Sequence record: PQ511146.1 | From: Escherichia phage NHEP1 | Strand: one strand, 5' to 3' | DNA: 64,000 nucleotides | Part shown: positions 15,686 through 61,745 of the stretch, in pieces | Layout of the letters: each line of letters starts with the position of its first letter | Numbering within the stretch: position 1 is the first letter of the stretch | Made by a program: the position numbers and the translations under genes | Notes under the pieces: model-generated | The model's input: only the letters and a program-made list of their open reading frames with translations | Told to the model about the DNA's origin: nothing | Database searches by the model: none

Positions 15686-16182
15686 TTATTGCGCTCCTTG
15701 TAGTAGATATGACTCCCGAATTGAGCTGTCCTCTGCATCTTTTTTGCCCATTTCGGTCGTACTTTTGTTGTATGGTAGTGTGTTGCTCCGCCTGTTATAT
15801 CCATAGCCATGTATGCAACATGGTTGTTATTATAGACCTTTAGAAGCATCTTTGCAAGACTTTTAGCGTGATCCCATGAATCTTTTTCTGTCACCTTAAA
15901 AGTTTTGCCGTGGTTTGTCCACGAAAACTGGTTAGGTTGGTAGACAATCTTTCTTATAGTGTCTGGGTATTTGGGGTGAGATTTCCTGTTTAGTGTGGCA
16001 AACCCAGATGCCAGCATACCCATCGTGCCATCCCCTCTAGCCTCCCTGTAGATATTGCATGCCAGAATGTTTTCCTTAGTATCCGACGGCTTGCAGGTGT
16101 GATATACTTTTTGTTTTGGTGCTGCAACAACAGGCAGCGATAAAAATGCGCTCAAAATAATAGCAAAGATCTTAGTTTTCAC
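15682..16182 (-). CDS. cell wall hydrolase, SleB/Hydrolase_2-like, with N-terminal signal peptide
   Basis: 166 aa; signal peptide MKTKIFAIILSAFLSLPVVAAP; NIYREARGDG, NQFS and GATHYH motifs; GTG start after GGAG SD; stop overlaps rIIA-like start. Confidence 0.65.
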   Translation of the reverse strand: MKTKIFAIILSAFLSLPVVAAPKQKVYHTCKPSDTKENILACNIYREARGDGTMGMLASGFATLNRKSHPKYPDTIRKIVYQPNQFSWTNHGKTFKVTEKDSWDHAKSLAKMLLKVYNNNHVAYMAMDITGGATHYHTTKVRPKWAKKMQRTAQFGSHIYYKERNK

Positions 16183-21463: not shown

Positions 21464-22924
21464 ATGGATAGCAGAAGTTCAGAAATCATTACCGCACAAA
21501 AAGATGATGCCTTGCGAATGCTGCAGGCCGCTCGCATGTACCTTCTTGAAAAGCTGCCGTTTTATGGCACACTGTTGTCAGGGTTGCAGTTCGTAGAAAA
21601 CCACACATGGTGCTCCACTATGGCAACAGACCATAAACGCATCTACTACAGCCCTGAGTTCATTATGGGGTTGGCAGATGAGCGTAAAACCATTCTTAAA
21701 GCATCTCTGACTGACAAGCAGTTTGAGATGGCTGAAGTTTTCTATTCCCCAAAATCTGTGAAAGAGGTGGCCTTTCTTCTGTCACATGAGGTGGGGCATA
21801 TTATCTGTGATCATCTGGTCCGTGGTAAAAGCTTTGAGCCGGAACTGTTCAATATTGCTTGTGATCACGTTATCAACACAGGTCTTGTGGTTGACTTTAG
21901 CAAGCCTCCTTGTGTTTTCTTCCCGAAGGGGAAAAGCACTGAGTTCGTAAAAGGTAAGCCTTTTGGCTTCTTAGCTAATTGCTACTGCGACATGAAGTTT
22001 CATGGATGGATTGCGGAGAACGTCTATGCAGTTCTTGATAAACAAAGAGATCAGAATGGCGGTAAAAGTAAGAACGGTAAAGGTGAGAACTCCCAAGGAG
22101 ATAAACGACAAACCGATGATCACATGAGCGGGAACGGTGGCACTAGTGATGATCTTGGAAAGGCTATGGGGTATGATCAGCCGCAACCAGTAATCAGTCA
22201 ATCGGATAAAGATCAGGCCATGCAGGACTCTGGTGACATGTTGGAAGCAGCAATGCAAGCTTCAGGAGGTCGTTGCCCCGAGGCGGTGCGCGAGTTTGTC
22301 AAAAACAGAGGCAAGCCTGTAATCAATTATATAGATATTATTAAGCAACGTATGTTATCTAAAAGAAAGGCTGAGTTAACCTACAGAAAACCTGGTCGCC
22401 GATCTGGGTCTTTGACCACCACAATGCGAAAAGTTGGAGCTATAAACAAGAATCAACACGTTATTGTTCCTGGTCGTAATCCGGAAAACACTATAGATAT
22501 TGTAGTGGCTTTAGACGTTTCTGGGTCGATCTCACAAAGAACTTTAAAGAAAATGTTCAATGAGATCACCGGGTTGTGCAATTTGTATAAAGAGTTTAAG
22601 GTTACGATGTTCTGTTGGTCAACCGAGGTTGGAGAGGTTAAAGTATACACTCGCGGTAACATCGATGAGATGATCAACTATGAGGTCCACTCAACATGGG
22701 GCACAACAGCCGCCTGCGTGTTCGAGTATCTTGATGCTAACATACCGAATGCAAAAGATGTCATCGTCCTTACCGACCTCTACTTTGAGCATAACTTTGA
22801 ACAAAAGGCTGTTGACAACAAGTGGAAAAAGTACGATACTTTATGGGTTCTCACCGAAGGGTATAATAAAAATTATATCCCGAGCTTTGGGAAAACTGTG
22901 GAATTAATCGAGTACGCTAAGTAA
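21464..22924 (+). CDS. metallopeptidase-like (HExxH) + von Willebrand factor A domain protein
   Basis: 486 aa; LLSHEVGHIICDH motif; C-terminal MIDAS-like VALDVSGSIS; track TTG start replaced by ATG after GGAG SD. Confidence 0.7.
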   Translation: MDSRSSEIITAQKDDALRMLQAARMYLLEKLPFYGTLLSGLQFVENHTWCSTMATDHKRIYYSPEFIMGLADERKTILKASLTDKQFEMAEVFYSPKSVKEVAFLLSHEVGHIICDHLVRGKSFEPELFNIACDHVINTGLVVDFSKPPCVFFPKGKSTEFVKGKPFGFLANCYCDMKFHGWIAENVYAVLDKQRDQNGGKSKNGKGENSQGDKRQTDDHMSGNGGTSDDLGKAMGYDQPQPVISQSDKDQAMQDSGDMLEAAMQASGGRCPEAVREFVKNRGKPVINYIDIIKQRMLSKRKAELTYRKPGRRSGSLTTTMRKVGAINKNQHVIVPGRNPENTIDIVVALDVSGSISQRTLKKMFNEITGLCNLYKEFKVTMFCWSTEVGEVKVYTRGNIDEMINYEVHSTWGTTAACVFEYLDANIPNAKDVIVLTDLYFEHNFEQKAVDNKWKKYDTLWVLTEGYNKNYIPSFGKTVELIEYAK

Positions 22925-27183: not shown

Positions 27184-30100
27184 TTAAAGAGAGAAAGTCG
27201 CGTAGGCTCCCAGACGATACTGCTGATCACCAGGGAACATAACACCTATAGAGGCTGTCCCTAGAATCCTGCCTTCCTTTCCAGACTCCATTCTGAACCC
27301 TACCCATCCGGAACTCCTTGCAGCCTCGATGTTGTCGCTATACCCAAAAGTGGCAAGCTCGTCAACACCAGCTCCAAACAGCAACTGAAGCTGACTTCTC
27401 GGAAGCCCTATAATTTCAGGAATATATGCACCAAAGTACACCATCTGCCCTACCTTAGGACCGCTGCCGTACTCCATCGGCTTGCTTGTAGAGAAAGTCT
27501 TCATACCAGAAGTCCCTGCCGGATTAGGGTATGCCCCGTTTGTTGCTGTGCCTATCCACATTCTCCACTGAGGTGCCATCTGTCTGACAGTGAAAGATGT
27601 TGAAGACGTTTTGCGGCCTGCATCATCCGTAACTACAAACTTTATAGTGACATTACCAGGGGCTTTAAATGTTACCAATCCTGTGGTAGCATCCACTGTT
27701 GCAATGTTAGTATTACTACTTTCCCAAGTCTTTCTAATCCCTGGCACATTGGAAGGGGTAATAGAAGGTTCCTGCATCTGCAGTTTACCGCCCACAATCC
27801 CTATGCCGTTACCTGGATTATACAACGCACCAACTTCATCTACAATGTTACCTGCCTTGAGGCTGTACTTTTTAGAGAAGTTGTAAGTGCCGTTATATGC
27901 GTGTGTCCCTGAGAAGGTTACATCTGCCTTGCCGTTGGAGATGCAAACCAAAGCATACTTCCTGTCAGGCAACTGTGCCCCAGTTTCTGGGTGAGTTTTA
28001 CCCACCTGGAACACGCTCGGGTCAGTAGAGTCGTGGCTATCACTAACAGAGCTTGGACCACCCATCAACTGTGACAAGCAATTCCTTACCCATGTCCAGT
28101 TATTGTCACTGGAGAAGTCTACAGTCAAATCAAACACAACCCACTCATTTGGCTTCCACACAGGTGTTGTGATCAACTTACCAACACCCCCACCCTGAAG
28201 AGTAGGAGATTGTTCAGTGATCAGGGCAGAGTATGCCAGAGTGCCCAACTGCATAGTCTGGCTTGCTGTCCTCACTACCTTAGAATCAGCATCTGTGAAG
28301 TTGTTGATGATCTGGAATGTGCCATAAGTGTTTTTACAGGTAATTCTGGCGTTCAGTGTGTCAATCTTCCTCACATCTGCCATAGCAGTGTTAGACACAG
28401 AGAAGTCAGAAGCTTTAGCTGAGTTTGCTGCAACAGCCGGATCAACGTTGAGGGTTGCGTTGAACTGGCAGGCAGGAGTAACCAGCAGCTTGTTATCACC
28501 TATTTGCTTCCATGAAACACTTTGAACAGGGAGATTCCATTTAATACCTGAGAAAACTTTAGCAACCCTTGGTCCCAGAGCTCCCGTCCTGTTGTCTTTA
28601 CAGCACATGGACATAGTGATCGTTGACGGGGTGGCCTGACCAAACAATTGTTGTGCTTTTGCAGAGGACATGGTGTAGAAATTGTCCTTAACAAACTCAT
28701 CAGCCGCTAACGATCCGTCAGATCTCCACCATTGCACCTGGTACCCAGTCTTATCCCAGCCACCGACCTGCTTTAAGTCCTCCCAAGAGATTTCCAAATC
28801 TCCGGTGGTAGGGTTAATTGCCGCAGTTCCTGGTGTTCCAGATGACCATATTGGGATATCGAACCACGCTGGTTTAACAGACTGCACTGCGTTAGGTCCT
28901 ATTGCAGCAGCAAGTTGTTGACCCATCAATACGCGAGCATCTTTCACCAGACCCCACTCAATCATAGACCCAGAGTAACCCTCTTTCTTATATGCGGATG
29001 ACCCATTCAAGTGAATAAGTCTACTTGTGCCGAAGTTATGTGCTCCACCGCCGTTGTCGTCTGCAAAATTGGTTATGATTCTATCCCTGATGTTTTTCCA
29101 TGCCCTGCCCCCAATCTCGTAGTCATGGTCATAACATCTTTGCAGCGTTGTCCAGCAAATGATCGCCATCCTTCTGCCGTTACTGAAGCCAAAAGCCTGA
29201 TCGTTAAGCTCTCTCCACAAATAGCAGTTAGTGGTCCACATAGCTCTGTGAATGTTGAACCAGTTTATAGACTTGGCTGAGTTATCCCACTGAGTCCCAG
29301 GTAATTCAGGCCACACTGCATTAACCAGCATGTCTTCTGTTCCTGCATCAACCAAGAACCCTCTTACCTTTTTACCCATGCCTACCCTGTCTTTTGCAAT
29401 CCAACTGCCAAACAATCTCAGTTTTGGACCGTAAACAACATCTTCCGGATGCTCAAAAGAGACATACTTCAGATATACTGTAGGGTCACCATAGGTGCCA
29501 TCACAAACAGCTTTGTGCATGTTCTCGCCAAGGTCTAGACGAAGTCCTGTTACAACTTTTGACGTGTCGGTGAATTTGTCTGTTAAATCAAATTCATACC
29601 ACCACCAACCTGCACCCAACAATACCTTCTTACAACGCTGCGCATCTGTATCAGATATTCTCTTATCTCCTGAAAAAGGTGAGTCAGCAAACTGATAGTG
29701 CAGAGCAATTTCAAAAGGATGTGTGGAGGTCCCGTTTTCTGCAAGGACTTGTTTACCTATTAAGTCACACTTAATAATCATCACAACACGTTTGTACCCA
29801 TTTGTTACTGGGATCTGCATAGACATAGATGTCCCGTCCATGTTTGATCTCAGCGCAGTCATGATGATATAAGGATCAACGGCATTACCAAGAGTTTCAG
29901 GCCCTGGAATTATCTTATACTTCTTAACCTGCCCCATGATGTAATCACTGGCGTAAGTTGCAGCCTCGAAGCAAGATCCCCCGTTAGGCAGTTCCCCTGG
30001 CCCCCAGAAAAATGCGCCATAACAGTTATAAAACCACTTGTTAGGGTCGTATTTGTTCTTGAAGGTCTGAACCTCGTTGGCCTGTTTTGTCAAGAAAACC

Positions 30101-32817
30101 TGCGTATCTGTAAAGATTGCAGGGTTTACTCTTGACTGTCGATTAGCATACCCGGTTTGGTTAAACCATTGATTGCAAGAGTAATCCCTCATATAATCGT
30201 AATCAGAGTATTTGTTTGCATCCTCGTTCCAACACATGTTGAGGTTGGTGCCGCCCATGCATACAATATATTCTTCAACGTATTTATCACTTCGAGTGGG
30301 AATTCCTATGAACCATCTGTTAACAGGCTCGTCCCAAGCGGTACGTTCATCTTTAACGCAGATTGCAATCCAGTCATGTGTCCCTGTTTTCTTGCACACA
30401 TCCCGTTTCATACCGTAGTAGAATTCTTTGGTATTTGGCTCAGGTGCGCTTATCAGGTAGCTCCACGCTTGGTCTGCATAGGTTCCGTCAGTGCGTGGGT
30501 CGTGATCAAAGGCGTACATGATGATCCTTTCCCCGCCAAGATGTTCACCAAGAGTAACTTTGATGTTCACATCTCCGTAACCGTTGCGAACAACATCCAT
30601 ATTGTCAATAGAGATGCCTCTAGGGGTGTAGGCAATTTTCAGTGAGTTATCCTCACTGGTGCCCCCAAGTGTAATCCCTATGTTGTTTGTTGTCCCGTCG
30701 GCATATCTTACTGTGGCTTCCCAGCGTATTCCGAAATATCCTGCATCATGGCTGACAATTTTCAGTGTACGAGCACCTGGGTGAGGTTTTCCAGGATCAG
30801 GCCAAGGGTCTGGGTGTTCGTGGACAGTCAACGACGTTCCGTTTTGCTCGTTAACCTGCAACATTTTACCACCTCTGCCGTTAGGGTTGAACTCCCATAC
30901 GGCCTGTGTCTGCACTAAGTTGTTGTAGGTATTTCGTCTCTGATCATAAATCTCTTGGGTAACATCATAAGTGACTGATCCAGCATCCATTCTGTGGAGT
31001 CGGACCATATACGATGTATCTCCTTCTACCGCAGGCTGAGTCCCATTCAGCCCGAAGTATACAGTGTCATTAACATGGAACTGTTTGTTTCTACCGACAG
31101 TATGCCACTTACCGTCAGAAGGATACGCAGGAACTATGGTGTTCCAGTTCAAGGTCCTTGTCGTGTGCGTTCTGCCTGTGCCATGCTTGTCATGATAGGT
31201 TATTTTTACAGAGTACAGGCCACGTCTGTTCACATTCCTGTTATACTGAGTAACAACAACTTCGTTGGCCCCGCCGTGGTTCCAGTTGGTGGAGAATTGG
31301 TAATTTGCATCTGTAACAACCGTACCTGCAGCATTTACCAGTTCAATCTTGTCAATAATGAACGTAGCTCCCTCTGGCTGAGGCTTCAATTTCATCTTGA
31401 CCGTGTCACCAATGTAGATATTGCTAACGCTGCTAACACCGTTAACGTCAAAAATATCATCAACACCCCAACTATCTACTGGGACATTTTTATACCAATT
31501 CTCAGGAACCTCTGTGAACCCTTGACTATTAAGTCTGCCACCAAACAGGTTATTAGAACCTGCAAAACTTCCCCTTGGGATGCCTGACCACCAAAGTTTA
31601 CCATTAACAACAGTAAAGGTCCCTAAGAAACCTTCTCTGTGAATGCCTTGGAAATAAACACTCTCTGTCCAGCTAACTGGGAGGCGTTGCTCAACGTATT
31701 TAGCCGTAGCAAGGGCCTGGTAATGAACAAAATCGGCACGGGGGTTATTGTTTGCAGATTGTGCGCCAATATCGTTGCACAGGTTTCGAGAGAAGCCACG
31801 ATACTGCTTAGTACCATTGTTGAAGAAAATGCCACTTGTGCCGTACCCACGAGCCATTATCACCTCATGGGTGTAGGTTATATTCAAAGCACGCCAGGCA
31901 TCATCCCCCCAAACGTTTTGACCATAAAATACGTTAACAAGTTGTTGGTCATCAGGTCTGTGCATTCTTTGTGTTGCAACCACTGCCCCGTTCGGACCAC
32001 ACATGAATCCTTTCCACTCCTCATCTGCAGGAATGCCTTTCAAATCGTTGCGAGTAATCTGAGCAGGGGGCCAAACAAGGTCGTTTCTACTGTTGTTTCT
32101 CAGAAAGTCGTATCCAGCAATCCAAAAACCTCTAGGCCCACCGAAAATAACAGAGTTGTCATGCACCTCGCAGTTGATACTTGGGTTTTTCCAAGGGCCT
32201 GTTTCAGGATTTTCTGATGTTTCACCAATCTTTACAGGAGTTGCATGCTGGTTCTTATCTACATGTAAAGATCCGTAGGTGTTGTTACCAGACCCGTACA
32301 GGTGTAAAATGCCGTCACCCTCAGCCTCTGCCATAACCCAAACAGTGTTGTTAATACCACCCATTACCTCGATAAGGCGCTCTGGGTGGGTGTCAAGGTG
32401 CAATCCTTGAACAATCTGTTCCGGAAGAGGTGTCCACTCGTTTACGCAAACATCGTTACCACCTGCCGCAGTGGATCCGATAAGACCTGCAGTGCAACCG
32501 ATGTAGAAAAACTGGTTATCAAAAGTCCGGATCACAAACGCACGGTCTGCTCTCCACACATGATCAACATTCCAGGCCGTCTCGCTCGGGTAGTTTATAG
32601 GGTTACGATCCCCAGTGCGACACTCCCCGAACTTGTTATAGCCAGTAATATTAAGCTGACCGTCGTCAAAAAGTATAGCTAAGCTATTTACATAAGCTAC
32701 TGTAGTGCTTGTACCGTCACTGTTGTCTATTGGGTATGACAGAACAGCAAGTTCCTTAACTCCACCCCTCTTATCGAGGAAATGACGACCAAGTTTTAGC
32801 AAAGGGATTGGAAGCAT
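27184..32817 (-). CDS. giant putative virion protein (1877 aa) with N-terminal RCC1-like beta-propeller repeats and C-terminal-region Big_2 Ig-like domain
   Basis: RCC1-like glycine-rich repeats (GYNKFGECRTGD, YGSGNNTYGSLHVD); Big_2-like TWESSNTNIATVDATTGLVTFKAPGNVTIKFVVTDDAG; terminators on both sides. Confidence 0.6.
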   Translation of the reverse strand: MLPIPLLKLGRHFLDKRGGVKELAVLSYPIDNSDGTSTTVAYVNSLAILFDDGQLNITGYNKFGECRTGDRNPINYPSETAWNVDHVWRADRAFVIRTFDNQFFYIGCTAGLIGSTAAGGNDVCVNEWTPLPEQIVQGLHLDTHPERLIEVMGGINNTVWVMAEAEGDGILHLYGSGNNTYGSLHVDKNQHATPVKIGETSENPETGPWKNPSINCEVHDNSVIFGGPRGFWIAGYDFLRNNSRNDLVWPPAQITRNDLKGIPADEEWKGFMCGPNGAVVATQRMHRPDDQQLVNVFYGQNVWGDDAWRALNITYTHEVIMARGYGTSGIFFNNGTKQYRGFSRNLCNDIGAQSANNNPRADFVHYQALATAKYVEQRLPVSWTESVYFQGIHREGFLGTFTVVNGKLWWSGIPRGSFAGSNNLFGGRLNSQGFTEVPENWYKNVPVDSWGVDDIFDVNGVSSVSNIYIGDTVKMKLKPQPEGATFIIDKIELVNAAGTVVTDANYQFSTNWNHGGANEVVVTQYNRNVNRRGLYSVKITYHDKHGTGRTHTTRTLNWNTIVPAYPSDGKWHTVGRNKQFHVNDTVYFGLNGTQPAVEGDTSYMVRLHRMDAGSVTYDVTQEIYDQRRNTYNNLVQTQAVWEFNPNGRGGKMLQVNEQNGTSLTVHEHPDPWPDPGKPHPGARTLKIVSHDAGYFGIRWEATVRYADGTTNNIGITLGGTSEDNSLKIAYTPRGISIDNMDVVRNGYGDVNIKVTLGEHLGGERIIMYAFDHDPRTDGTYADQAWSYLISAPEPNTKEFYYGMKRDVCKKTGTHDWIAICVKDERTAWDEPVNRWFIGIPTRSDKYVEEYIVCMGGTNLNMCWNEDANKYSDYDYMRDYSCNQWFNQTGYANRQSRVNPAIFTDTQVFLTKQANEVQTFKNKYDPNKWFYNCYGAFFWGPGELPNGGSCFEAATYASDYIMGQVKKYKIIPGPETLGNAVDPYIIMTALRSNMDGTSMSMQIPVTNGYKRVVMIIKCDLIGKQVLAENGTSTHPFEIALHYQFADSPFSGDKRISDTDAQRCKKVLLGAGWWWYEFDLTDKFTDTSKVVTGLRLDLGENMHKAVCDGTYGDPTVYLKYVSFEHPEDVVYGPKLRLFGSWIAKDRVGMGKKVRGFLVDAGTEDMLVNAVWPELPGTQWDNSAKSINWFNIHRAMWTTNCYLWRELNDQAFGFSNGRRMAIICWTTLQRCYDHDYEIGGRAWKNIRDRIITNFADDNGGGAHNFGTSRLIHLNGSSAYKKEGYSGSMIEWGLVKDARVLMGQQLAAAIGPNAVQSVKPAWFDIPIWSSGTPGTAAINPTTGDLEISWEDLKQVGGWDKTGYQVQWWRSDGSLAADEFVKDNFYTMSSAKAQQLFGQATPSTITMSMCCKDNRTGALGPRVAKVFSGIKWNLPVQSVSWKQIGDNKLLVTPACQFNATLNVDPAVAANSAKASDFSVSNTAMADVRKIDTLNARITCKNTYGTFQIINNFTDADSKVVRTASQTMQLGTLAYSALITEQSPTLQGGGVGKLITTPVWKPNEWVVFDLTVDFSSDNNWTWVRNCLSQLMGGPSSVSDSHDSTDPSVFQVGKTHPETGAQLPDRKYALVCISNGKADVTFSGTHAYNGTYNFSKKYSLKAGNIVDEVGALYNPGNGIGIVGGKLQMQEPSITPSNVPGIRKTWESSNTNIATVDATTGLVTFKAPGNVTIKFVVTDDAGRKTSSTSFTVRQMAPQWRMWIGTATNGAYPNPAGTSGMKTFSTSKPMEYGSGPKVGQMVYFGAYIPEIIGLPRSQLQLLFGAGVDELATFGYSDNIEAARSSGWVGFRMESGKEGRILGTASIGVMFPGDQQYRLGAYATFSL

Positions 32818-32825
32818 TGTGTTCT

Positions 32826-32858
32826 CCAGATAAGAAAACCGCCCCGTCAGGAGCGGTC
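32826..32858 (-). terminator. rho-independent terminator after the 581-aa fibre gene
   Basis: Minus transcript CCGCUCC-UGAC-GGGGCGG followed by UUUUCUUAUC. Confidence 0.55.
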
Positions 32859-32865
32859 AGATATA

Positions 32866-34611
32866 TTAACGTTGTGCAATAACCACATCCACAATATCAC
32901 CAACACCACAATATGTCAATTGTAGCAAGGTGACACTGTTGGCTTTGTTGTTAATAACAGGAGTAGCCGACAGTATGGCATATTTATCGTGTAAGGTCAC
33001 GTTGTGGCCTACAGCATCCTGAATGACATAGATGATTGCAGTGAACGGGTAAGGTTTATCTTCAGCCGATGTTCCAGGCCATTGCCCTATTGTAAAATCC
33101 CCTTTCGCGTGGACAACATACATATTGGCCTGCCCGTTAGGTGTCCATGTCCCACTAGATGCGTCAGCCTCCTCTAAGTCAAACTCCACCTTCCCTGCAT
33201 GGAAAGCAGGGGCAGTAATAGTTTTACCAGCTTCAATTTCTTGAGAGGTGGTTATCTTGCCACTGGAGTTAATGCCATTACAGACAAAGTTGACATTAGA
33301 GAAGTCTGGCAGCCACCCAGTCACTGTACCTGATATTTCAAGGTTGTGAAGGTAGGTGGTGCCCGTCCCTGCTGCGTTTAAACTAACATCTCCATTTACC
33401 TGCAAGTTTCTGGTAACGTTGCAGTTTTCAGAGTTTGCAGTTGTTGCAGTTAGAGTGGTGGTTGTCAGCTCGGTAATTGCACCTTTGTTGGCTGTAAGCC
33501 CTTCTCCTTCAAAAGTGGCACGCTCATTCACCCTCAGAGTATTTAAAGATATGTTCTGGACAGATGCTGTGCCACGAATGACTATAGATCCGCCAACCTC
33601 TAAATCTCCATTGATCAGTGCATCTCCCGTGCTTTCAATATAGCTAGGGTAGATCATGGTGCCATCTACAGAGTAGGTTATCCCTGTAACGGTGCCTGTC
33701 ACCTCAAGGTTCTTAACCCTGGTGGTCCCATCAACCTGCAATGTCGGTTCGGTGGCTGCCTTCATGGCATTACCGCGAATGTACACGTAGTCAAAAAAGT
33801 TATTACCTAGACCATCAAAATGCACATCGTTGTTATTAGCCACTGGTTTCCCAGAAGTTATAGTGTCAGCTATAGCTCTGTGAGTTGATACTTCATGAGG
33901 TTGCAGCTCTGTGCTTCTCCAGTCTGCATGCTTAGGATCGCTCCACGCAAAGGTTAGTGTAGAAGTATTTGCAGTAAGGATTAGGTTCCTGAAGCGTGCA
34001 GTAGAATCTGCTCCATTAACAGGCCCGTGTAAGGTAAGGGTGCCCCCAACTATGGTGTTGGCAAGTTCTGTAAGACCTTTTACCACCAAAGATCCTACAG
34101 TAACTTTCATCCCCTCCATGGCTTTAAATATGCTATCCACATAGTCAACAACAAACTCTGTGTTTGCTATAGATTCGGACTTATCGTCCATTGGAGGTGT
34201 AGGTACTCTCGGGTCACCTTCGAACCTTGGACTGTTAAGTTTTGCGTAGTATTTTGCCATTACTGCAGAATCGGTATATAATCTCCAGTTCGGAGATCGT
34301 GAAGGATCTGCTGGCATCCTAACCGGGTTAGATTTTGATGCTGCTGGGGCGTACCACCACTGAGTGCCTGTATCCCCTTTAAACTCATACAACTGGTTAA
34401 AAACTGTTGTGGATGCACCATACGCCCAAGGGATTGGTGGCGTTTTAAAATAAAGGGTGTCAAGCATGGCTTTTCGTACCGTAGGGATGGTGGTCCCATC
34501 CTCTACGACAACTTCATCCACAGCGTTACCGTTGACAATCAAGTGCAAACGTTCAGAATCAACAATTACTTGATCTACCGCCTGCTCAAAGCTTGTCATG
34601 TCTTGCGCCAT
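32866..34611 (-). CDS. tail fibre / tailspike-like protein
   Basis: 581 aa; repetitive beta-rich segments (NLEVTGTVTGITYSVDG, NLEISGTVTGW) in fibre gene cluster. Confidence 0.55.
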   Translation of the reverse strand: MAQDMTSFEQAVDQVIVDSERLHLIVNGNAVDEVVVEDGTTIPTVRKAMLDTLYFKTPPIPWAYGASTTVFNQLYEFKGDTGTQWWYAPAASKSNPVRMPADPSRSPNWRLYTDSAVMAKYYAKLNSPRFEGDPRVPTPPMDDKSESIANTEFVVDYVDSIFKAMEGMKVTVGSLVVKGLTELANTIVGGTLTLHGPVNGADSTARFRNLILTANTSTLTFAWSDPKHADWRSTELQPHEVSTHRAIADTITSGKPVANNNDVHFDGLGNNFFDYVYIRGNAMKAATEPTLQVDGTTRVKNLEVTGTVTGITYSVDGTMIYPSYIESTGDALINGDLEVGGSIVIRGTASVQNISLNTLRVNERATFEGEGLTANKGAITELTTTTLTATTANSENCNVTRNLQVNGDVSLNAAGTGTTYLHNLEISGTVTGWLPDFSNVNFVCNGINSSGKITTSQEIEAGKTITAPAFHAGKVEFDLEEADASSGTWTPNGQANMYVVHAKGDFTIGQWPGTSAEDKPYPFTAIIYVIQDAVGHNVTLHDKYAILSATPVINNKANSVTLLQLTYCGVGDIVDVVIAQR

Positions 34612-34620
34612 GATTTCTCC

Positions 34621-34887
34621 TTAAGCTTTTTGCTCTTCGTTTTTAACGTGGTCAGGGTGCTGGCAACCCCACCGGAGCGAGATGAATTTGCTAATAAGCT
34701 GGGGGCAAGCTACCGAAGGTGCGTATATCCACGCATACCATTCAGGAAGCGTATCATTGTACCCCATATGAATAAACACCCCAGTCATCACTGCCATGCC
34801 TATGTTTGACCATAGCTTAGATTGGGACACTTTCGTAGGGTCATCAGATGCCGCAACCAACCCCCATAAAAACTGAGTTAATTTCAT
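34621..34887 (-). CDS. small membrane protein (holin candidate, speculative)
   Basis: 88 aa; hydrophobic segment LWSNIGMAVMTGVFIHMG. Confidence 0.3.
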   Translation of the reverse strand: MKLTQFLWGLVAASDDPTKVSQSKLWSNIGMAVMTGVFIHMGYNDTLPEWYAWIYAPSVACPQLISKFISLRWGCQHPDHVKNEEQKA

Positions 34888-34896
34888 TTACCCTCT

Positions 34897-35940
34897 TTAA
34901 GCATAAGATATGGTGATCCATTGACCGTTTACAAATTTTTGAATAGCACCAGTCCAATAGTCACCTTGATACGGGTGTTTATAGGCGTAATTGCCGGAGC
35001 ACATTACATGCCCAGGGTATACTCTTGATTCTCTGTAGGTGGTTCTGAAACGGTTTGCTATCCTTACATCTTCAACACCCCTACTAGGCATAGGGATAGT
35101 AAGGTTACCACTGCTATCTGCGCTACTACCATTTACCCTGCGGACCACGTTTCTCCCACCAACTGTTGCATATTGACCCCTGGCGGTTTTATCGTTACAA
35201 TCTACTCTTCCACCTATTTGAGCGCTGCCGCAGGATTGTTGTCCATTAACAGTGGCTCTTGGTATCGTTACCGCATTGGCATTTGCAGAGGAGCTTTTTG
35301 CATCATTGCATTCAAGATTTCCTTGGATAGCCAGTCTTGCACGGTTGGCAGTTATAGCATTGAGCTTCATAGCCGAAAACACAGGCTGCCCACCAGAAGG
35401 TTGAAATCTCCAACGGAAACCGTCTATTTGGTGAGAAGGATCATCAAGGTCTGTGCCGTCAGCGCCACCGATGTTGTCCATAATCCAGAAATCCATCATC
35501 GTCTTGTCTGGAGTTATGGTGGTGTATATCGCCGCATTGTCTGTTGACGCAGATGCAAACTCAATTCTTTGAAGACCTAAAGTTTGAGTCTGGATCATTG
35601 TGTCTCCAGTCTTGTCAACATAAAGGTCATCCATTTCTTCAGGCGAGTATACATTGAGAACTTGACGTGCAGCAGCTTTGTCTGGAACGTCTGCCAGATT
35701 ATTAGTGACCCTTAAGAATCTATTATCCCATCCAGGGACAACATCTTCTGTTAAATGCTTTAGCCACGCAGAGAGCATGTGGAGTTCAAAGTTAACAACT
35801 TCACATGCTATCCTTTGTGTCACATCCCAACCTTTCAATCTCTCTTCTTTGTTCGGTTGAGATTTGTTCAACTCTCCTGTATTTTCAAGCACAACATCCT
35901 GATTGGCCCAAATATCGAGAGGGATAACTGGTTTAGTCAT
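34897..35940 (-). CDS. tail fibre protein, paralog A (P2 gpH-like C-terminal tip)
   Basis: 347 aa; N-terminus and C-terminal tip (QKFVNGQWITISYA) clearly similar to 36956..37996; ATG after AGGAGAAC SD. Confidence 0.6.
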   Translation of the reverse strand: MTKPVIPLDIWANQDVVLENTGELNKSQPNKEERLKGWDVTQRIACEVVNFELHMLSAWLKHLTEDVVPGWDNRFLRVTNNLADVPDKAAARQVLNVYSPEEMDDLYVDKTGDTMIQTQTLGLQRIEFASASTDNAAIYTTITPDKTMMDFWIMDNIGGADGTDLDDPSHQIDGFRWRFQPSGGQPVFSAMKLNAITANRARLAIQGNLECNDAKSSSANANAVTIPRATVNGQQSCGSAQIGGRVDCNDKTARGQYATVGGRNVVRRVNGSSADSSGNLTIPMPSRGVEDVRIANRFRTTYRESRVYPGHVMCSGNYAYKHPYQGDYWTGAIQKFVNGQWITISYA

Positions 35941-35974
35941 CACGTTCTCCTGAGAAAATTCCTTAAGGACTATT

Positions 35975-36012
35975 TTAACACTTTAGAGAACAAAATGCAA
36001 GAACGGCATCCT
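35975..36012 (-). terminator. rho-independent terminator between the two fibre cassettes
   Basis: Perfect 8-bp stem GAACGGCA-(4 nt)-UGCCGUUC followed on minus strand by UUGCAUUUUGUUCUCU. Confidence 0.6.
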
Positions 36013-36030
36013 TGCCGTTCTGACCTTTGT

Positions 36031-36345
36031 TTACCTTTTACTATGCTCTACAAGCATGTGTAAAATCTTTTGTACATCAGCTCTGATACCGGAGACATCT
36101 GTCCTGACATCTTGCTTAAGGTCGTTAATATCGGCCTCTAGCTTACTTAGCCGGGTCTCAATAATGGAATCAAGTCTATCTTTTGTAACCATGCTATTTT
36201 TCACTAAAATGAGGTCTTTCTCCAGCTCATCCAGCCTCTTGGAAATGCCTTTCCATTTGGTGTGCCACTGGTTGAAAGCCCATACACAGATCGGGACAAC
36301 GGTACCCATGCAGATACCGTACAGTGCCGCCAAATCCAACTCCAC
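36031..36345 (-). CDS. membrane-anchored coiled-coil protein (spanin- or chaperone-like, speculative)
   Basis: 104 aa; N-terminal TM LAALYGICMGTVVPICVWAF then charged heptad-like region. Confidence 0.35.
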   Translation of the reverse strand: MELDLAALYGICMGTVVPICVWAFNQWHTKWKGISKRLDELEKDLILVKNSMVTKDRLDSIIETRLSKLEADINDLKQDVRTDVSGIRADVQKILHMLVEHSKR

Positions 36346-36356
36346 AACACCTCCTC

Positions 36357-36941
36357 TTAGAGGGTAGGTCGTTCCGGGAAGAAAATGTCAGGGGCTTTAG
36401 ATGTATCTATTTCAAGAAGTTTTACCCTGTACATTTTCAAATCTCTGATGTTGCGTTTTTGGTCATCAGTGAGATCGTATTCAAGGTCAATCATGTCTTG
36501 ATAGGCACCAATTCTAGCAGTAGCCCAAGCAAGTTCTGTCTCTATGACACCCTCTGCCTGTTGAACAAAGAATTCATTGTCTGTGACAAATTCATCACCA
36601 ACTAAACGCAAAGCGTCGTGGTGGAGCATAATGTTTTCTGGTACCTCTTCTTTTTTGGCGATAACCACACGAAGACCTGGAGCAGGCCACAAGGCATCGG
36701 GTTCTTCTGTAGATGTCTTAAGAATACCCTTCTCGTCAACAAGTAGGAAGATACAACCCGGATTTTCTTGTCGTAATGCTCGTGATTGCACATACCAATC
36801 GCCATCATCATTACGTAAAAAATATCCAGTGTATGCCGTGTAATCCTCAACCTCCTGAGGAGTCAACTCCTTGGTCTCCTTGTTGGTGTAGTATTCGCCA
36901 GATCCCGGCTGGTAAAGCTTAAACTCTTGAAGTATTTTCAT
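36357..36941 (-). CDS. tail fibre assembly protein (Tfa family)
   Basis: 194 aa; C-terminal signature RNIRDLKMYRVKLLEIDTSKAPDIFFPERP matches the conserved Tfa motif (...VD.S.APDI.WP..P); directly downstream of fibre paralog B. Confidence 0.65.
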   Translation of the reverse strand: MKILQEFKLYQPGSGEYYTNKETKELTPQEVEDYTAYTGYFLRNDDGDWYVQSRALRQENPGCIFLLVDEKGILKTSTEEPDALWPAPGLRVVIAKKEEVPENIMLHHDALRLVGDEFVTDNEFFVQQAEGVIETELAWATARIGAYQDMIDLEYDLTDDQKRNIRDLKMYRVKLLEIDTSKAPDIFFPERPTL

Positions 36942-36955
36942 GCTAGTCCTCCGAT

Positions 36956-37996
36956 CTACGCATAATTAACAGTGATCCATTGACCATTTACAAGTTTTTG
37001 TAAAGGACCTGCCCAGTAGGTTGAACCACGCATCTCTTTTTTATCACCAAAATGCCAACCTGTGACAACGTAGCCGTTGCGAACTGGAGATTCAGAAACA
37101 CCATCAACAAGTCTTGCACCGATTCTGATATCCTGTACCCCTGTCTGCGGGATGGTGATCGTTACATCGCCGTTACCGTTAGCCGTCACTCCATTCACAG
37201 AGCGCACCACATTTCTGTTACCGACAACACAGTGCTGGCTTCTTACAACCATACTGTCACAACTTGCGCCGCCATTAACATATACTGACCCAGCCGTCAA
37301 CTGACTAGCTACATTGCAGTTGGTGAATGTTGCTGTGCTGCTAATGGTGAGGTTATTACATCGCATGTTATCAACAACTTCAACATTGCCCACCACTTTC
37401 AACAACGCACGATTAGCCGTGATCGCGTTCAGGTACATCAGAGTGAACTCTGGGTTAATGTCCGGCTGAGTTGGCTGGAATCTCCAACGGAACGCATCTA
37501 CTGTAGATGTACCACCATCATCGAACGCCCCAATATTATCACTTAACCCAAAGTCAAGAGTTGTCTTATCTGGGCCAATAGTTGTCTCTATCCAAGCCTT
37601 ATCTGTCTCGGCAGCTTTAAAGTTGATACGTTGCAAACCCAATGGGCCTGTCATTGTATCACCTGTAACTTTTACATACCTGGCGTCTGCCTCTTCCTTA
37701 GTAATAATCCCAAGGTTTCTACGGGCAACAGGGATGTTTAAAAGATCACTCAAGTTATTATCACGTACCAGATAACGCCCTTCTTGAGCGGGGATCTGCT
37801 CGTCAGCAATGTATTTTGCCCAAGTTCCGAGCATATTGAAAATATAGTTAAGTTCTTCACAGGATGGCTTTTGACCAAGATCCCAACCTTTTCTCCACAA
37901 ATCATCAATCGGGCGTAGCCTGTTCTGTCTGTGGGTGTTAGGCAGAACCTGATCCTCCTCTGCCCAAATCTCTAATGGAAAACTAGGTTTTGACAT
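36956..37996 (-). CDS. tail fibre protein, paralog B (P2 gpH-like C-terminal tip)
   Basis: 346 aa; C-terminal QKLVNGQWITVNYA; paralog of 34897..35940. Confidence 0.6.
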   Translation of the reverse strand: MSKPSFPLEIWAEEDQVLPNTHRQNRLRPIDDLWRKGWDLGQKPSCEELNYIFNMLGTWAKYIADEQIPAQEGRYLVRDNNLSDLLNIPVARRNLGIITKEEADARYVKVTGDTMTGPLGLQRINFKAAETDKAWIETTIGPDKTTLDFGLSDNIGAFDDGGTSTVDAFRWRFQPTQPDINPEFTLMYLNAITANRALLKVVGNVEVVDNMRCNNLTISSTATFTNCNVASQLTAGSVYVNGGASCDSMVVRSQHCVVGNRNVVRSVNGVTANGNGDVTITIPQTGVQDIRIGARLVDGVSESPVRNGYVVTGWHFGDKKEMRGSTYWAGPLQKLVNGQWITVNYA

Positions 37997-38008
37997 TTTA
38001 TCTCCTGA

Positions 38009-40081
38009 TTATGAGAAGTCTGGCGGAACAACATCTTCTACATACCCTTTCAGAGCAACCTGTCCCATATGCAGAACAGTAGAATCTCTGGCGGTAACAG
38101 TGATGCTGTCAGACATTACTTGCGGGTATGCCCACACATACTGTTTTACCTCAGGGTATCTATACTCTATGGTTGCCATGTTTCCGCAGATACATCTCCA
38201 TAAAAATTCTTGGTAATTCCTGGTTGGGTCGTAGCCATATACCGGAGCAAGCTCTTTGCTAGGAACGAACCCTGCAAGGTATTGTATTTCAGACGGTTGC
38301 CAACCTAACTTAACGATAGGTATGTTTACAGACTCTTTTGCCTTTTCAATACCGCCCTGCATCACCCAATCGTAGCACTCGGTGCAGAAGAAATCAAGAG
38401 CGCCTGCTTCCTTTTTATATTGGTCGGCAAGGTTCAGTTTTTGCGTAAGCTCGGTTTCCATAATGGTCGGGAAAAACAGCAAAGCTGTCATCTGAGCCGA
38501 TGCAGCATGTGCTTTTATTGCCTTTGAAATAGCTGCAATACGAGCTCCAAGCTTACCACGACAAAATGCTACATACTTGTCATAAACACCGCCAGTTTTA
38601 GGATCGTCAATAGTCCCAATGTCTAGTGCATATTCACCAGTCTCATCATAAAACGCCTGCTTTGTAGGGTAGTCATAAATACAAGGCTTACGAGTATCGG
38701 TATTGAACCACCACCACGGTTCACCAATCTGCATAATCACTGGCAGGTTGTTTCTCATAGCGGCTGATGCAAAATTCTTAAATACTGCAGTAAGGAAATT
38801 CATACCCTCTTCAATGGTTGGAGACAGGAGGTAACTACAAGGCGTATAGCCTGTTTTAGCATAGTTATCGTTCCAGTCTCTCTGGGTCCATTCCAACGGA
38901 CAGGCATCGCTATAAAGCTCAAAGCTTACAGACTGCATAACGTCGAAGTCATGTCGTTTGGCATTGTACATAAAATCATCATGCCATTTATAAGCTGCAG
39001 CGTTTAGAGCTCCTGTTTTGTTTATAGACCATTGGGTTCCTGACCATGTGTAGTCATAATAATGGCTCATACCAACATAATGGTTTATGGTTCCTGTATA
39101 GCCCAGACGCTTGATATTACTCAACACCCTTAAAGGGGATACGTTCCACATATCGTCATATGCTGTGCAGATCCCAACATCGTGTTCTTTCACCTGAATA
39201 TTGTTAAGTTGCATCATTTTCCAGCCTGTGTCCGGCTGAAGAAGATCTAGACGCAACTCACACTCTACATTTTCCGTTCTCGGGTCTGTGCTATTACCTA
39301 CCCAATCTTTAGGCATAAGTGGTATTAGAATCCTTCTCACCTGCCGGGGATCAACACCCATCATGTTGTTGTTCTGGTCCATCCCGACGCAGTCCTCGAA
39401 ATCAATATGAATTTCTGCAACATTCTTATCCTCTGAGATGCTGACAGCATATTGAGCTAAAGGAACATAGATGATTGTACCATCAACAAGGTCTACAGTC
39501 ATAATCATCTTTTCAGGGGTGGAGAAGTTGCTGGCATTGGTTATTGACATTCTGAACCAAAGCTTGGTGTTTCTCATCTCGTAGTGATCATCAAATCCAA
39601 TGCCGAAATGGTCATACTTGTCAACTGTTTCCCAAATGCACCCAGCCATGCCCCCATATGTTCTTGACACTAAACGATTAATACAGCAGTTATTATCCGC
39701 AACAATACAGGTGCTTTCAGTCTGCTGTGTGGTTGTAACCCAGTATCTTGGGTGAAACATTCTCTCCTCAACGGTATCCCAAGATATTCTGTCAAGATTT
39801 TCATCTGAAACTATTGTACATTTCGCTCTTTGTGTTCCAATCATAACCCCTTGGGAGTTTGATGAAAACTCCATAAAGAAGCTCCTTGGCAACCTGTTTG
39901 GCAATTTGTCAACAATTTCTACAGGGATCTCGATACTGGTTGCCCCAACCGGGATAGTTACATCGCCCTCAACATGATCATAATCCCTACCCGGAACTGC
40001 AGTATCCTGAACTGTGCGGTAATGAAACCGTGCAGCCATTGTAGAGTAATCACGGTAAGGTTTAAAAACAGCTGTTGCCAT
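38009..40081 (-). CDS. baseplate/fibre-associated structural protein with N-terminal Calx-beta-like segment
   Basis: 690 aa; DYDHVEGDVTIPVGATSIEIPVEIVDK; positioned after baseplate J/I-like genes. Confidence 0.45.
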   Translation of the reverse strand: MATAVFKPYRDYSTMAARFHYRTVQDTAVPGRDYDHVEGDVTIPVGATSIEIPVEIVDKLPNRLPRSFFMEFSSNSQGVMIGTQRAKCTIVSDENLDRISWDTVEERMFHPRYWVTTTQQTESTCIVADNNCCINRLVSRTYGGMAGCIWETVDKYDHFGIGFDDHYEMRNTKLWFRMSITNASNFSTPEKMIMTVDLVDGTIIYVPLAQYAVSISEDKNVAEIHIDFEDCVGMDQNNNMMGVDPRQVRRILIPLMPKDWVGNSTDPRTENVECELRLDLLQPDTGWKMMQLNNIQVKEHDVGICTAYDDMWNVSPLRVLSNIKRLGYTGTINHYVGMSHYYDYTWSGTQWSINKTGALNAAAYKWHDDFMYNAKRHDFDVMQSVSFELYSDACPLEWTQRDWNDNYAKTGYTPCSYLLSPTIEEGMNFLTAVFKNFASAAMRNNLPVIMQIGEPWWWFNTDTRKPCIYDYPTKQAFYDETGEYALDIGTIDDPKTGGVYDKYVAFCRGKLGARIAAISKAIKAHAASAQMTALLFFPTIMETELTQKLNLADQYKKEAGALDFFCTECYDWVMQGGIEKAKESVNIPIVKLGWQPSEIQYLAGFVPSKELAPVYGYDPTRNYQEFLWRCICGNMATIEYRYPEVKQYVWAYPQVMSDSITVTARDSTVLHMGQVALKGYVEDVVPPDFS

Positions 40082-61442: not shown

Positions 61443-61454
61443 GCTTTCCTCATA

Positions 61455-61491
61455 ATAAAAAGGGCCAGATCCCAGAAAAGGAATCCGGCCC
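61455..61491 (-). terminator. stem-loop with U-tract between chaperone genes and tape measure gene (attenuator-like)
   Basis: Minus transcript GGGCCGGAUUCC-(loop)-GGGAUCUGGCCC followed by UUUUU, then GAGGAAA SD of tape measure. Confidence 0.45.
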
Positions 61492-61496
61492 TTAGA

Positions 61497-61745
61497 TTAT
61501 CCTCTCCTGCGTTTAGCTTTCGCAGCAGCTGCGGCAGCCCTCTGCTCCCGCTCCATTTCCCTATTTTGGACGGTATCTAGGAATTCTTCGATATCAAGAT
61601 ACTCACAGAGTTTCAGGAAATACGCCATATCTGCAAGATTTAGCGATTCAAAATTTTCCCCTTTGAAATTCTTGAGCACCCTGCACCAAAGAAAGTCGAA
61701 CCAGTTAAGTGAACTGTTCTTGGCTGCCCACTCACTGGCCCTCAC
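61497..61745 (-). CDS. tail assembly chaperone T segment (expressed as G-T fusion by -1 frameshift)
   Basis: 82 aa with GTG start; its frame is open about 38 codons upstream, overlapping the end of 61757..62230 in the -1 frame. Confidence 0.55.
   Translation of the reverse strand: MRASEWAAKNSSLNWFDFLWCRVLKNFKGENFESLNLADMAYFLKLCEYLDIEEFLDTVQNREMEREQRAAAAAAKAKRRRG

Follow-up and report, generated by a model that had tools for sequence, protein, structure and literature searches.

A small membrane protein encoded among the tail-fibre genes of Vequintavirus phages as a candidate holin

Introduction

Few coliphages are isolated or used in therapy more often than the rV5-like phages, and the locus considered here raises the question of what two small membrane proteins do in the midst of their tail-fibre gene cluster. 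The proteins, p88 (88 amino acids, aa) and p104 (104 aa), are the homologues of rV5 gp29 and gp31, and are encoded at 34621-36345 of a 64,000-nucleotide stretch of Escherichia phage NHEP1 (PQ511146.1), hereafter the window. A sequence-only reading of the window had suggested holin or spanin-like functions for the pair, or else a role in fibre assembly. The holin function gained support for p88, by comparative genomics only: homologues are located in lysis cassettes, and a late transcription unit is predicted. The spanin-like function did not hold. Because of the cassette homologues and the predicted late unit, and because no holin has been assigned in this group of phages, we consider it about an even call that p88 serves Vequintavirus and related phages as their holin, or at least as a core inner-membrane lysis protein.

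Results

Organization of the p88 and p104 genes

Over positions 32000-38500, the window is 97-98% identical to the Escherichia phages JEP1, B9-1, ECP26, and FV3, with 119 phage records matching. By sequence, it is a Vequintavirus (rV5/FV3-like myovirus), and its gene numbering is collinear with that of rV5 and FV3. Both open reading frames (ORFs) are present where the earlier reading had placed them, on the minus strand between fibre genes, in the order gp33-gp32-p104-gp30-p88-gp28. They have the same orientation as the fibre genes and are tightly packed with them.

36956-37996, minus strand: gp33, short tail fibre, 346 aa
36357-36941, minus strand: gp32, tail fibre assembly protein (chaperone), Pfam Caudo_TAP
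36350-36356, minus strand: Shine-Dalgarno sequence GAGGAGG, 4 nt 5' of the p104 GTG (sequence read)
36031-36345, minus strand: p104, 104 aa, GTG start, rV5 gp31 homologue (ORF and PHROG 5345)
36000-36021, minus strand: hairpin resembling a terminator (9-bp stem, T-rich tail), right after the p104 stop codon (pattern scan)
35956-35993, minus strand: late-promoter-like sequence (TTGTTCTCTAAAGTGTTAAAATAGTCC...), matching rV5 P030 (rV5 Table S4 and sequence read)
34897-35943, minus strand: gp30, paralogue of the short tail fibre, 348 aa, between p104 and p88 (PHROG 4465, tail fibre, E 1.5e-162)
34621-34887, minus strand: p88, 88 aa, ATG start with AAGAGGG 4 nt upstream, rV5 gp29 homologue (ORF and PHROG 1322)
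32866-34611, minus strand: gp28, lateral fibre
32837-32858, minus strand: intrinsic terminator after gp28, equivalent to rV5 t028 (pattern scan and rV5 Table S4)

The p88 and p104 genes are real and conserved rather than chance ORFs: tblastn found p88 in 373 phage records and p104 in 223. The records with p88 span Vequintavirus, Seunavirus, Certrevirus, Henunavirus, Mydovirus, Phapecoctavirus, phi92-like phages, and the Aeromonas genus Plateaulakevirus. A homologous-protein search with p88 and p104 yielded close relatives only.

Relatives of p88 in lysis cassettes

Scans of IMG/VR with family alignments gave about 146 loci (designated L) carrying p88-like genes, in 29 clusters at ~70% identity. 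The alignment of Vequintavirinae-type sequences (A1) and that of small-phage sequences (A4), which have no sequences in common, matched each other over their whole length in hhalign at 99.6% probability (E 2.7e-24, 74 columns). Members from L055 and L057 match PHROG 1322, the family matched by p88, at 5e-20 and 3e-22, and tblastn with the protein of Pseudomonas phage Bise directly reaches the Seunavirus and rV5-type genes. The following gene orders were found around p88-like genes, with TM denoting transmembrane.

Ralstonia phage RS138: late activator, endolysin ORF26, p88-like ORF27, Rz-like spanin ORF28
Pseudomonas phage Bise: Mor, 147-aa enzyme, p88-like, putative i-spanin, 92-aa protein aligning with Mu gp25 (alignment A6)
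L055 (Mu-like): Peptidase_M15_4/VanY endolysin, p88-like (ATGA overlap), Rz-like protein, then a TM and coiled-coil protein at the Mu gp25 position, Mu gp27-like, TerL
L125: lysozyme, p88-like, i-spanin-like
L121: tail-anchored coiled-coil protein, p88-like, lysozyme, i-spanin-like
L128: p88-like, tail-anchored coiled-coil protein, lysozyme
L101: lysozyme two genes upstream of p88-like
L077: p88-like, then an enzyme read as Glyco_hydro_108
L107: enzyme read as M15-type, then p88-like
L057: fibre, chaperone, two small TM proteins, p88-like, DUF5675
L049: p88-like, then Phage_lysis (Rz) protein
L162: M15_4, then p88-like
L166: p88-like, and three genes on a Pfam DUF2730 gene, then Mu gp27, terminase
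L197/L198 (~100-kb uncultured myophage): Amidase_3, p88-like, i-spanin-like at 3428-4734, between sheath-initiator and wedge genes

A position beside an endolysin or spanin gene was thus found in RS138, Bise, L055, L121, L125, L128, L101, L077, L049, L162, and L197. In the Mu-like phages RS138 and Bise, the p88-like genes belong to the first part of the late operon, close upstream of the genes for terminase and portal, and no tail-fibre gene occurs in the stretch examined. The Bise 147-aa enzyme, named 'protease family protein' in its record, was read as resembling the M15-type endolysins of L055 and L162. Neither the RS138 nor the Bise enzyme has an N-terminal hydrophobic stretch, so that each would need a holin. 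The only other non-spanin membrane protein of the Bise-type cassette aligns with Mu gp25, which was shown experimentally not to be a holin (Chamblee et al., PMC9239132); by elimination, the p88-like protein would be the holin.

We examined the 133 neighbours lying within three genes of p88-like genes in 23 independent clusters. Phage_lysozyme and dUTPase, with four occurrences each, are jointly the commonest Pfam families among them, and Glyco_hydro_108 (read as the L077 enzyme), Peptidase_M15_4, and DUF5675 occur once each. A peptidoglycan hydrolase lies within three genes in 7-8 of the 23 clusters (binomial p 0.0003-0.015, with generous null rates of 6-12%). Taken over all loci, the p88 family pairs with at least five enzyme classes, including lysozyme, GH108, M15, amidase, and the uncharacterised DUF5675, and this pairing of one membrane-protein family with many enzyme classes is the modular pattern typical of holins. 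In the uncultured myophage of L197/L198, a complete lysis cassette sits inside the baseplate module, an arrangement closely comparable to the placing of lysis genes within a tail module.

Among Pfam families, relatives of p88 touch DUF2644 alone. It is touched by 3 of 72 family representatives (best E 2e-4), several relatives have precomputed matches, and one close relative is so named in the nr database. We found no paper discussing a function of DUF2644 in the literature searched. The phage group of HolP2110, a tested 76-aa holin of a Ralstonia phage, was absent from tblastn at E 1e-3 to 1e-2, and no link to this holin is claimed.

Predicted late transcription of p88

The late-promoter-like sequence ahead of gp30 corresponds to the putative late promoter P030, listed for rV5 at 22274..22310, between genes 31 and 30 (rV5 Table S4). 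The hairpin at 36000-36021 is absent from the rV5 terminator list in the same table; it is likely the end of a gp36-gp31 late unit, with p104 as its last gene. We predict from these signals that p88 belongs to a late unit, gp30-gp29-gp28, extending from P030 to t028. Late expression of p88 is inferred from this promoter prediction.

Known lysis genes of rV5-like phages

Kongari et al. (2018) assigned the spanins of rV5, FV3, and 2-JES to two separated genes next to the terminase gene. The rV5 pair, gp66/gp67, consists of a gene for a 95-aa lipoprotein and one for a 132-aa protein with one transmembrane domain (TMD), at 60871-61554 in rV5 and 60096-60779 in FV3. The papers on CB7 and LL12 agree on a spanin pair beside the terminase, and the pair has been assigned in PVP-SE1 too. 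By collinearity, the rV5-type pair lies outside the window. The endolysin of the rV5 group is given in the literature as gp89/gp90 (Phage_lysozyme), rather than as the signal-peptide hydrolase. The annotators of LL12 (Texas A&M) did not positively identify a holin, and the only published candidate is that of Kropinski et al., rV5 gp129, a 78-aa protein with two TMDs. The gp129 protein is confined to the genus (115 records), its FV3 version is only 53% identical, and its gene lies among genes with host-type (sigma-70) promoters.

These assignments bear on the spanin-like function proposed for the pair, in which p104 would be an i-spanin subunit or a part of a second spanin system. The N-terminal TM segment and coiled coil of p104 do have the general shape of Rz-type i-spanins, and the p104 analogue of phAPEC8 gives a weak PHROG match to 'Rz-like spanin' (E 0.0012). 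The spanin pair of rV5, FV3, PVP-SE1, CB7, and LL12 is already placed beside the terminase, and the charge distribution of p104 predicts an N-out/C-in topology with a cytoplasmic coiled coil, the opposite of an i-spanin. Neither a lipobox ORF adjacent to, overlapping, or embedded in p104 nor a match of p104 to Pfam Phage_lysis was found. Given the gp66/gp67 assignment, the reversed topology, and the missing lipoprotein partner gene, we rejected p104 as an i-spanin, a role that we regard as extremely unlikely.

The signal-peptide hydrolase that had been grouped with the two proteins is indeed encoded separately, within the window.

15682-16182, minus strand: SleB-type cell wall hydrolase, starting MKTKIFAIILSAFLSLPVVAAPKQK; the rV5/FV3 counterpart, gp2, is listed as Hydrolase_2

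Its N-terminal sequence, MKTKIFAIILSAFLSLPVVAAPKQK, is strongly hydrophobic and resembles a cleavable Sec signal more than it does a signal-arrest-release (SAR) domain. The stop codon of this gene overlaps the start of rIIA (13703-15685).

Predicted membrane topology of p88

p88 matches PHROG 1322 ('membrane protein') at E 2.7e-32, with residues 1-87 aligned to positions 1-86 of the 87-position profile. The family has the motif S-x-S/T-K-L-W-S-N-I-G, of which S-x-S/T-K lies just ahead of helix 1, and a short acidic loop joins the two helices. After helix 2 come K67 and R72, with R72 kept mainly in Vequintavirus-type members, and a hydrophilic, highly charged C-terminal tail, as is usual for holins, ends the protein (RWGCQHPDHVKNEEQKA in the window). 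Tail length varies across the family: close relatives have tails of ~40-50 residues that end in RR and abound in D, E, R, and Y, and some relatives carry a third, N-terminal TM segment and a long acidic-then-basic tail. From this conservation of the motif, acidic loop, K67/R72, and charged tail, p88 is predicted to be a two-helix hairpin, N-in/C-in, with both ends in the cytoplasm. Hydrophobic stretch 1 has a Hessa-scale sum of 5.8, within the range of 4.3-6.4 that we computed for the helices of lambda S105, S21 68, and T7 gp17.5, and stretch 2 is weaker (9.6), the sum being crude. Neither p88 nor p104 gave anything above coiled-coil noise in Pfam, NCBIfam, PADLOC, and PDB sequence searches, and p88 has no Pfam or NCBIfam match at all.

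A number of observations weigh against a holin role. The description of p88 as a hydrophobic 88-aa protein stands as to the ORF, and is too strong as to hydrophobicity, which is only moderate: stretches 25-43 and 53-71 each reach only ~1.0 on the Kyte-Doolittle scale, and the rV5 gene table (TMHMM and Phobius) gives '1 TMD' for gp31 and gp67 and has no TMD entry for gp29. The second helix of p88 contains two prolines and one lysine, and AlphaFold2 places helices at 22-41, 44-55, and 62-73 with low confidence (predicted local distance difference test, pLDDT, 58). In the window, p88 adjoins fibre genes and not an endolysin or spanin gene, and p88-like genes accompany fibre genes in several lineages, which could reflect a fibre-related role. 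No family member is annotated as a holin in the matching tblastn records. In L069, the p88-like gene lies upstream of an apparent tape-measure gene with no lysis gene in view. Large T4-like phages (Moby, ACP17, and IMG/VR relatives) have a p88 homologue, often with an extra TM segment and a long charged tail, that stands alone on the opposite strand among replication genes, an uninformative context. On the side of p104, a viral profile scan found its family nowhere but in this fibre cluster, right behind the gene for the fibre chaperone, and the family matched an alignment built from Mu gp25 and proteins at the equivalent position at only 8% probability in hhalign.

A probable annotation error concerns gp033 of Stenotrophomonas phage Moby (L160): the record leaves the p88-like ORF, which an annotated terminator follows, uncalled, and gives in its stead an overlapping ORF on the other strand. 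In Hena1, gp197 is called as 55 aa, and an in-frame upstream start gives the full 83 aa, which makes the shorter call a probable annotation error.

p104 and other bitopic coiled-coil proteins

The description of p104 as a 104-aa protein with a TM segment and a coiled coil was borne out. The Kyte-Doolittle maximum over 19 residues is 1.9, at residues 5-23; AlphaFold2 models helices at 5-49 and 55-103 (pLDDT 88); and 15 of 21 heptad a/d positions are hydrophobic in one register. Table S3 of rV5 already lists gp31 as a membrane protein with 1 TMD. The protein matches PHROG 5345, which has no function assigned, over its whole length (1-104 of 104, E 1.1e-48). Its N-terminus is acidic (MELD), and the flank after the TM segment is basic (residues 26-40 hold 4 K/R versus 2 D/E). 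Under the positive-inside rule, such a distribution predicts N-out/C-in, and p104 is predicted to be bitopic, with an N-terminal TM helix (~residues 5-25) and a cytoplasmic coiled coil. FV3_00031 (gp31) is annotated as 279 nt, or 92 aa, and loses half of the TM helix, a probable annotation error. The GAGGAGG sequence and the full N-terminus retained by the homologues in GAP31, Hena1, and CB7 argue for the 104-aa form with the intact TM segment.

The family of p104 is confined to the fibre cluster, which provides no independent context, so that its link to lysis is indirect. It is drawn from the recurrence of small bitopic coiled-coil membrane proteins beside p88-family genes at many loci that are unrelated. 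Such proteins have an N-terminal TM segment in L133 and L134, and a C-terminal one in L049, L057, L107, L121, L125, L128, L129, L144, and RS138 (ORF30). Proteins aligning with Mu gp25 are encoded near p88-like genes in Bise, L055, L085, and L101, and a Pfam DUF2730 protein in L166.

The Mu 'releasin' gp25 (DUF2730) is a late protein of ~100 aa with an N-terminal TM segment, N-out/C-in topology, and a helical cytoplasmic domain (PMC9239132). What p104 shares with gp25 is size, architecture, and predicted topology only. p104 has no match to Pfam DUF2730, for which Mu gp25 itself scores 2.5e-13, and phAPEC8 gp089 was likewise negative in hhalign against the gp25 alignment. Unlike gp25, p104 has a cytoplasmic domain that is near neutral rather than anionic, and its gene adjoins the fibre chaperone gene with no endolysin nearby in the window; a SAR endolysin was not identified in this phage. 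The supplement of the releasin paper mentions neither holins nor RS138. We infer any role for p104; most likely it is a membrane-tethered accessory of lysis or a fibre-assembly factor.

Tail-anchored proteins with an N-terminal coiled coil and a C-terminal TM segment (63-149 aa) recur near p88-like genes, a further example being L158:4520-4741. Those of L049 and L057 have no Pfam match, and the group may represent an unrecognised class of lysis-cassette proteins.

Conservation of the fibre-cluster context

The second interpretation of the locus is that p88 and/or p104 are non-virion factors of fibre morphogenesis, with p104 as a membrane-anchored coiled-coil chaperone for the trimeric short fibres and p88 as an accessory to the downstream lateral fibre. 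Synteny in the relatives is one argument for it. In GAP31 (Seunavirus), Hena1 (Henunavirus), CB7 (Certrevirus), and 2L372X (Plateaulakevirus), the order is short fibre, chaperone, p104, a polytopic protein, p88, and lateral fibre, which places three membrane-protein genes in a row. The middle gene encodes a polytopic membrane protein of 146-157 aa, assigned to PHROG 7451 in GAP31 and CB7 and without a Pfam match, and overlaps the p104 stop codon (ATGA). It was located as follows.

L005:6312-6785, polytopic membrane protein
L004:6312-6785, polytopic membrane protein
L007:9592-10050, polytopic membrane protein
L008, ~5490-5950, polytopic membrane protein

This ORF is unannotated in Aeromonas phage 2L372X. 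Vequintavirus has the duplicated short fibre gp30 in its place. In phAPEC8-type phages, p88 lies between tailspike and baseplate wedge genes, and a 111-aa TM and coiled-coil protein, annotated 'lipoprotein', follows the chaperone. This protein is weakly related to p104 (PHROG 5345 at E 1e-4; p104 against PHROG 15210 at 2e-3). Without exception, p104 and its phAPEC8 positional analogue come after the pair of short fibre and Caudo_TAP chaperone, and in Vequintavirinae, Stephanstirmvirinae, and Plateaulakevirus the gene right after p88 is always one for a fibre, a tailspike, or the baseplate wedge. The tight, co-oriented packing with fibre genes is what the fibre interpretation would expect.

The available virion analyses do not place either protein in the particle, as would also be the case for chaperones. 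Tandem mass spectrometry of CB7 virions confirmed CB7_23-31, 36, and 37, and did not detect the chaperone CB7_32 or the trio CB7_33-35. Neither gp29 nor gp31 is among the virion proteins named in the text and gene table of the rV5 paper, in which mass spectrometry identified 19 proteins in all, a set too small to be decisive. In a cryo-electron microscopy study of phi92 (2026), gp143 and gp145-147 are among the proteins built, and gp144, gp148, and gp149 go unmentioned; by synteny with phAPEC8, gp144 and gp149 appear to be the counterparts of p88 and p104. The absence of the CB7 trio from virions also counts in favour of p88 as a lysis protein, and is weak evidence since mass spectrometry easily misses small hydrophobic proteins.

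The position of the p88 homologues of RS138 and Bise at the start of a late operon, with no fibre gene in the stretch examined, and the pairing of the family with peptidoglycan hydrolases of many classes both speak against a fibre factor, and the conserved TM segments imply that p88 acts in the membrane. T4 gp57A, the chaperone for gp12, gp34, and gp37, is a soluble coiled-coil protein, and we know of no precedent for membrane-integrated fibre chaperones. Overall, we consider the fibre interpretation of the two proteins rather unlikely as a whole; a role in short-fibre assembly for p104 is, by analogy, a serious alternative.

Superinfection exclusion

The category of PHROG 1322, 'moron, auxiliary metabolic gene and host takeover', points to a third interpretation, namely that p88 and p104 are membrane proteins of host takeover or superinfection exclusion, comparable to T4 Imm/Sp or T5 Llp, that would block a second infection or shield progeny from cell debris. 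Small membrane proteins encoded beside receptor-binding genes fit the exclusion pattern, as with T5 llp and phi80 cor. Also in favour, the p88 family is nearly absent from bacterial genomes, with a single relative among 185,579 bacterial and archaeal genomes. The family is small overall, with 72 clusters at 50% identity, all of 56-189 aa, found among 1.84 billion representatives. To our knowledge, the known exclusion genes of virulent phages are early, whereas a late promoter is predicted here and the genes would be co-transcribed with structural genes. The family is, moreover, kept across very different hosts and receptor types, and its members stand between endolysin and spanin genes in Mu-like cassettes. 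No lipoprotein signal was found, and no PADLOC match above coiled-coil noise. We judge an exclusion function to be very unlikely.

Proposed role in lysis and comparison with known systems

If p88 is the holin, the following sequence of events can be proposed. p88, a small hairpin of two weakly hydrophobic helices with its N-terminal S-H/Q-T/S-K motif and charged tail in the cytoplasm, would be made late, on the same transcript as gp30 and gp28, and would build up in the inner membrane until triggering. It would then permeabilise the membrane and release a soluble lysozyme-type endolysin, rV5 gp89 (outside the window), after which the spanin pair gp66/gp67 would complete lysis. p104 would probably work with p88 as a timing or accessory factor, for example as an antiholin or co-holin. 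Both the membrane topology of p88 and its hole formation are put forward here from prediction and comparison.

The closest parallels are the class II holins and pinholins, such as phage 21 S68 and T7 gp17.5. Shared features are the small size (65-125 aa across the p88 family), two helices rich in the small residues Gly, Ala, Ser, and Thr, a topology predicted to be N-in/C-in, a charged C-terminal tail whose length varies, the predicted late transcription of p88, and the proximity of its relatives to endolysin and spanin genes. p88 differs from these holins in lacking sequence similarity to Pfam, NCBIfam, or PDB entries (p88 itself and most family members do not match even DUF2644), in the unusually polar second helix of the Vequintavirus protein, and in the location of its gene among fibre genes, away from the endolysin and spanins; its hole formation is, moreover, hypothetical.

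The layout of T4 offers a parallel for this location: its holin gene t lies beside the tail-fibre gene 38, and the endolysin gene e and the spanin genes pseT.3/pseT.2 lie elsewhere. The T4 holin, T (218 aa), belongs to class III, has one TM segment and a large periplasmic domain, and is unrelated to p88 in sequence and topology. What the two systems would share is a scattering of lysis genes in a large virulent myovirus and a holin gene that borders the tail-fibre cluster. The rV5 paper also cites T4 for a separated holin.

A broader proposal is that the p88 family is an unrecognised holin family of Vequintavirinae, Stephanstirmvirinae, Plateaulakevirus, some Mu-like phages, and several uncultured lineages; that in large myoviruses p88 acts, inside fibre operons, with p104 and, in some genera, with the polytopic third protein; and that holin dosage, and hence lysis timing, is tied to fibre gene expression. 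Taken jointly, these three statements are speculative, and we doubt that all of them hold. p88 is a conserved holin candidate, predicted to be late, with relatives in textbook lysis cassettes. Were its holin function true, PHROG 1322, including the few members touching DUF2644, could be annotated in at least 373 sequenced phage genomes, p88 would represent a new sequence family within a known functional class, and these phages would join T4 as a case in which lysis genes are dispersed into clusters of tail genes. The pairing with bitopic coiled-coil proteins bears on the role of releasin-like proteins in phages with soluble endolysins.

Additional observations

Two further genes flank the region described above.

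38009-40081, minus strand: gp34, lateral fibre, Pfam NCTSP TIM barrel
27184-32817, minus strand: gp27

The paralogues gp33 and gp30 flank the pair of chaperone and p104 genes, and the chaperone gene follows gp33 only; gp30 and gp33 of rV5 are 42% identical, as reported. Approximately 16-21 GenBank records named 'Campylobacter phage' (MG0656xx), with Campylobacter jejuni given as the host, share 94% identity with E. coli Vequintavirus genomes in this region, and are probably mislabelled or derived from contaminated preparations.

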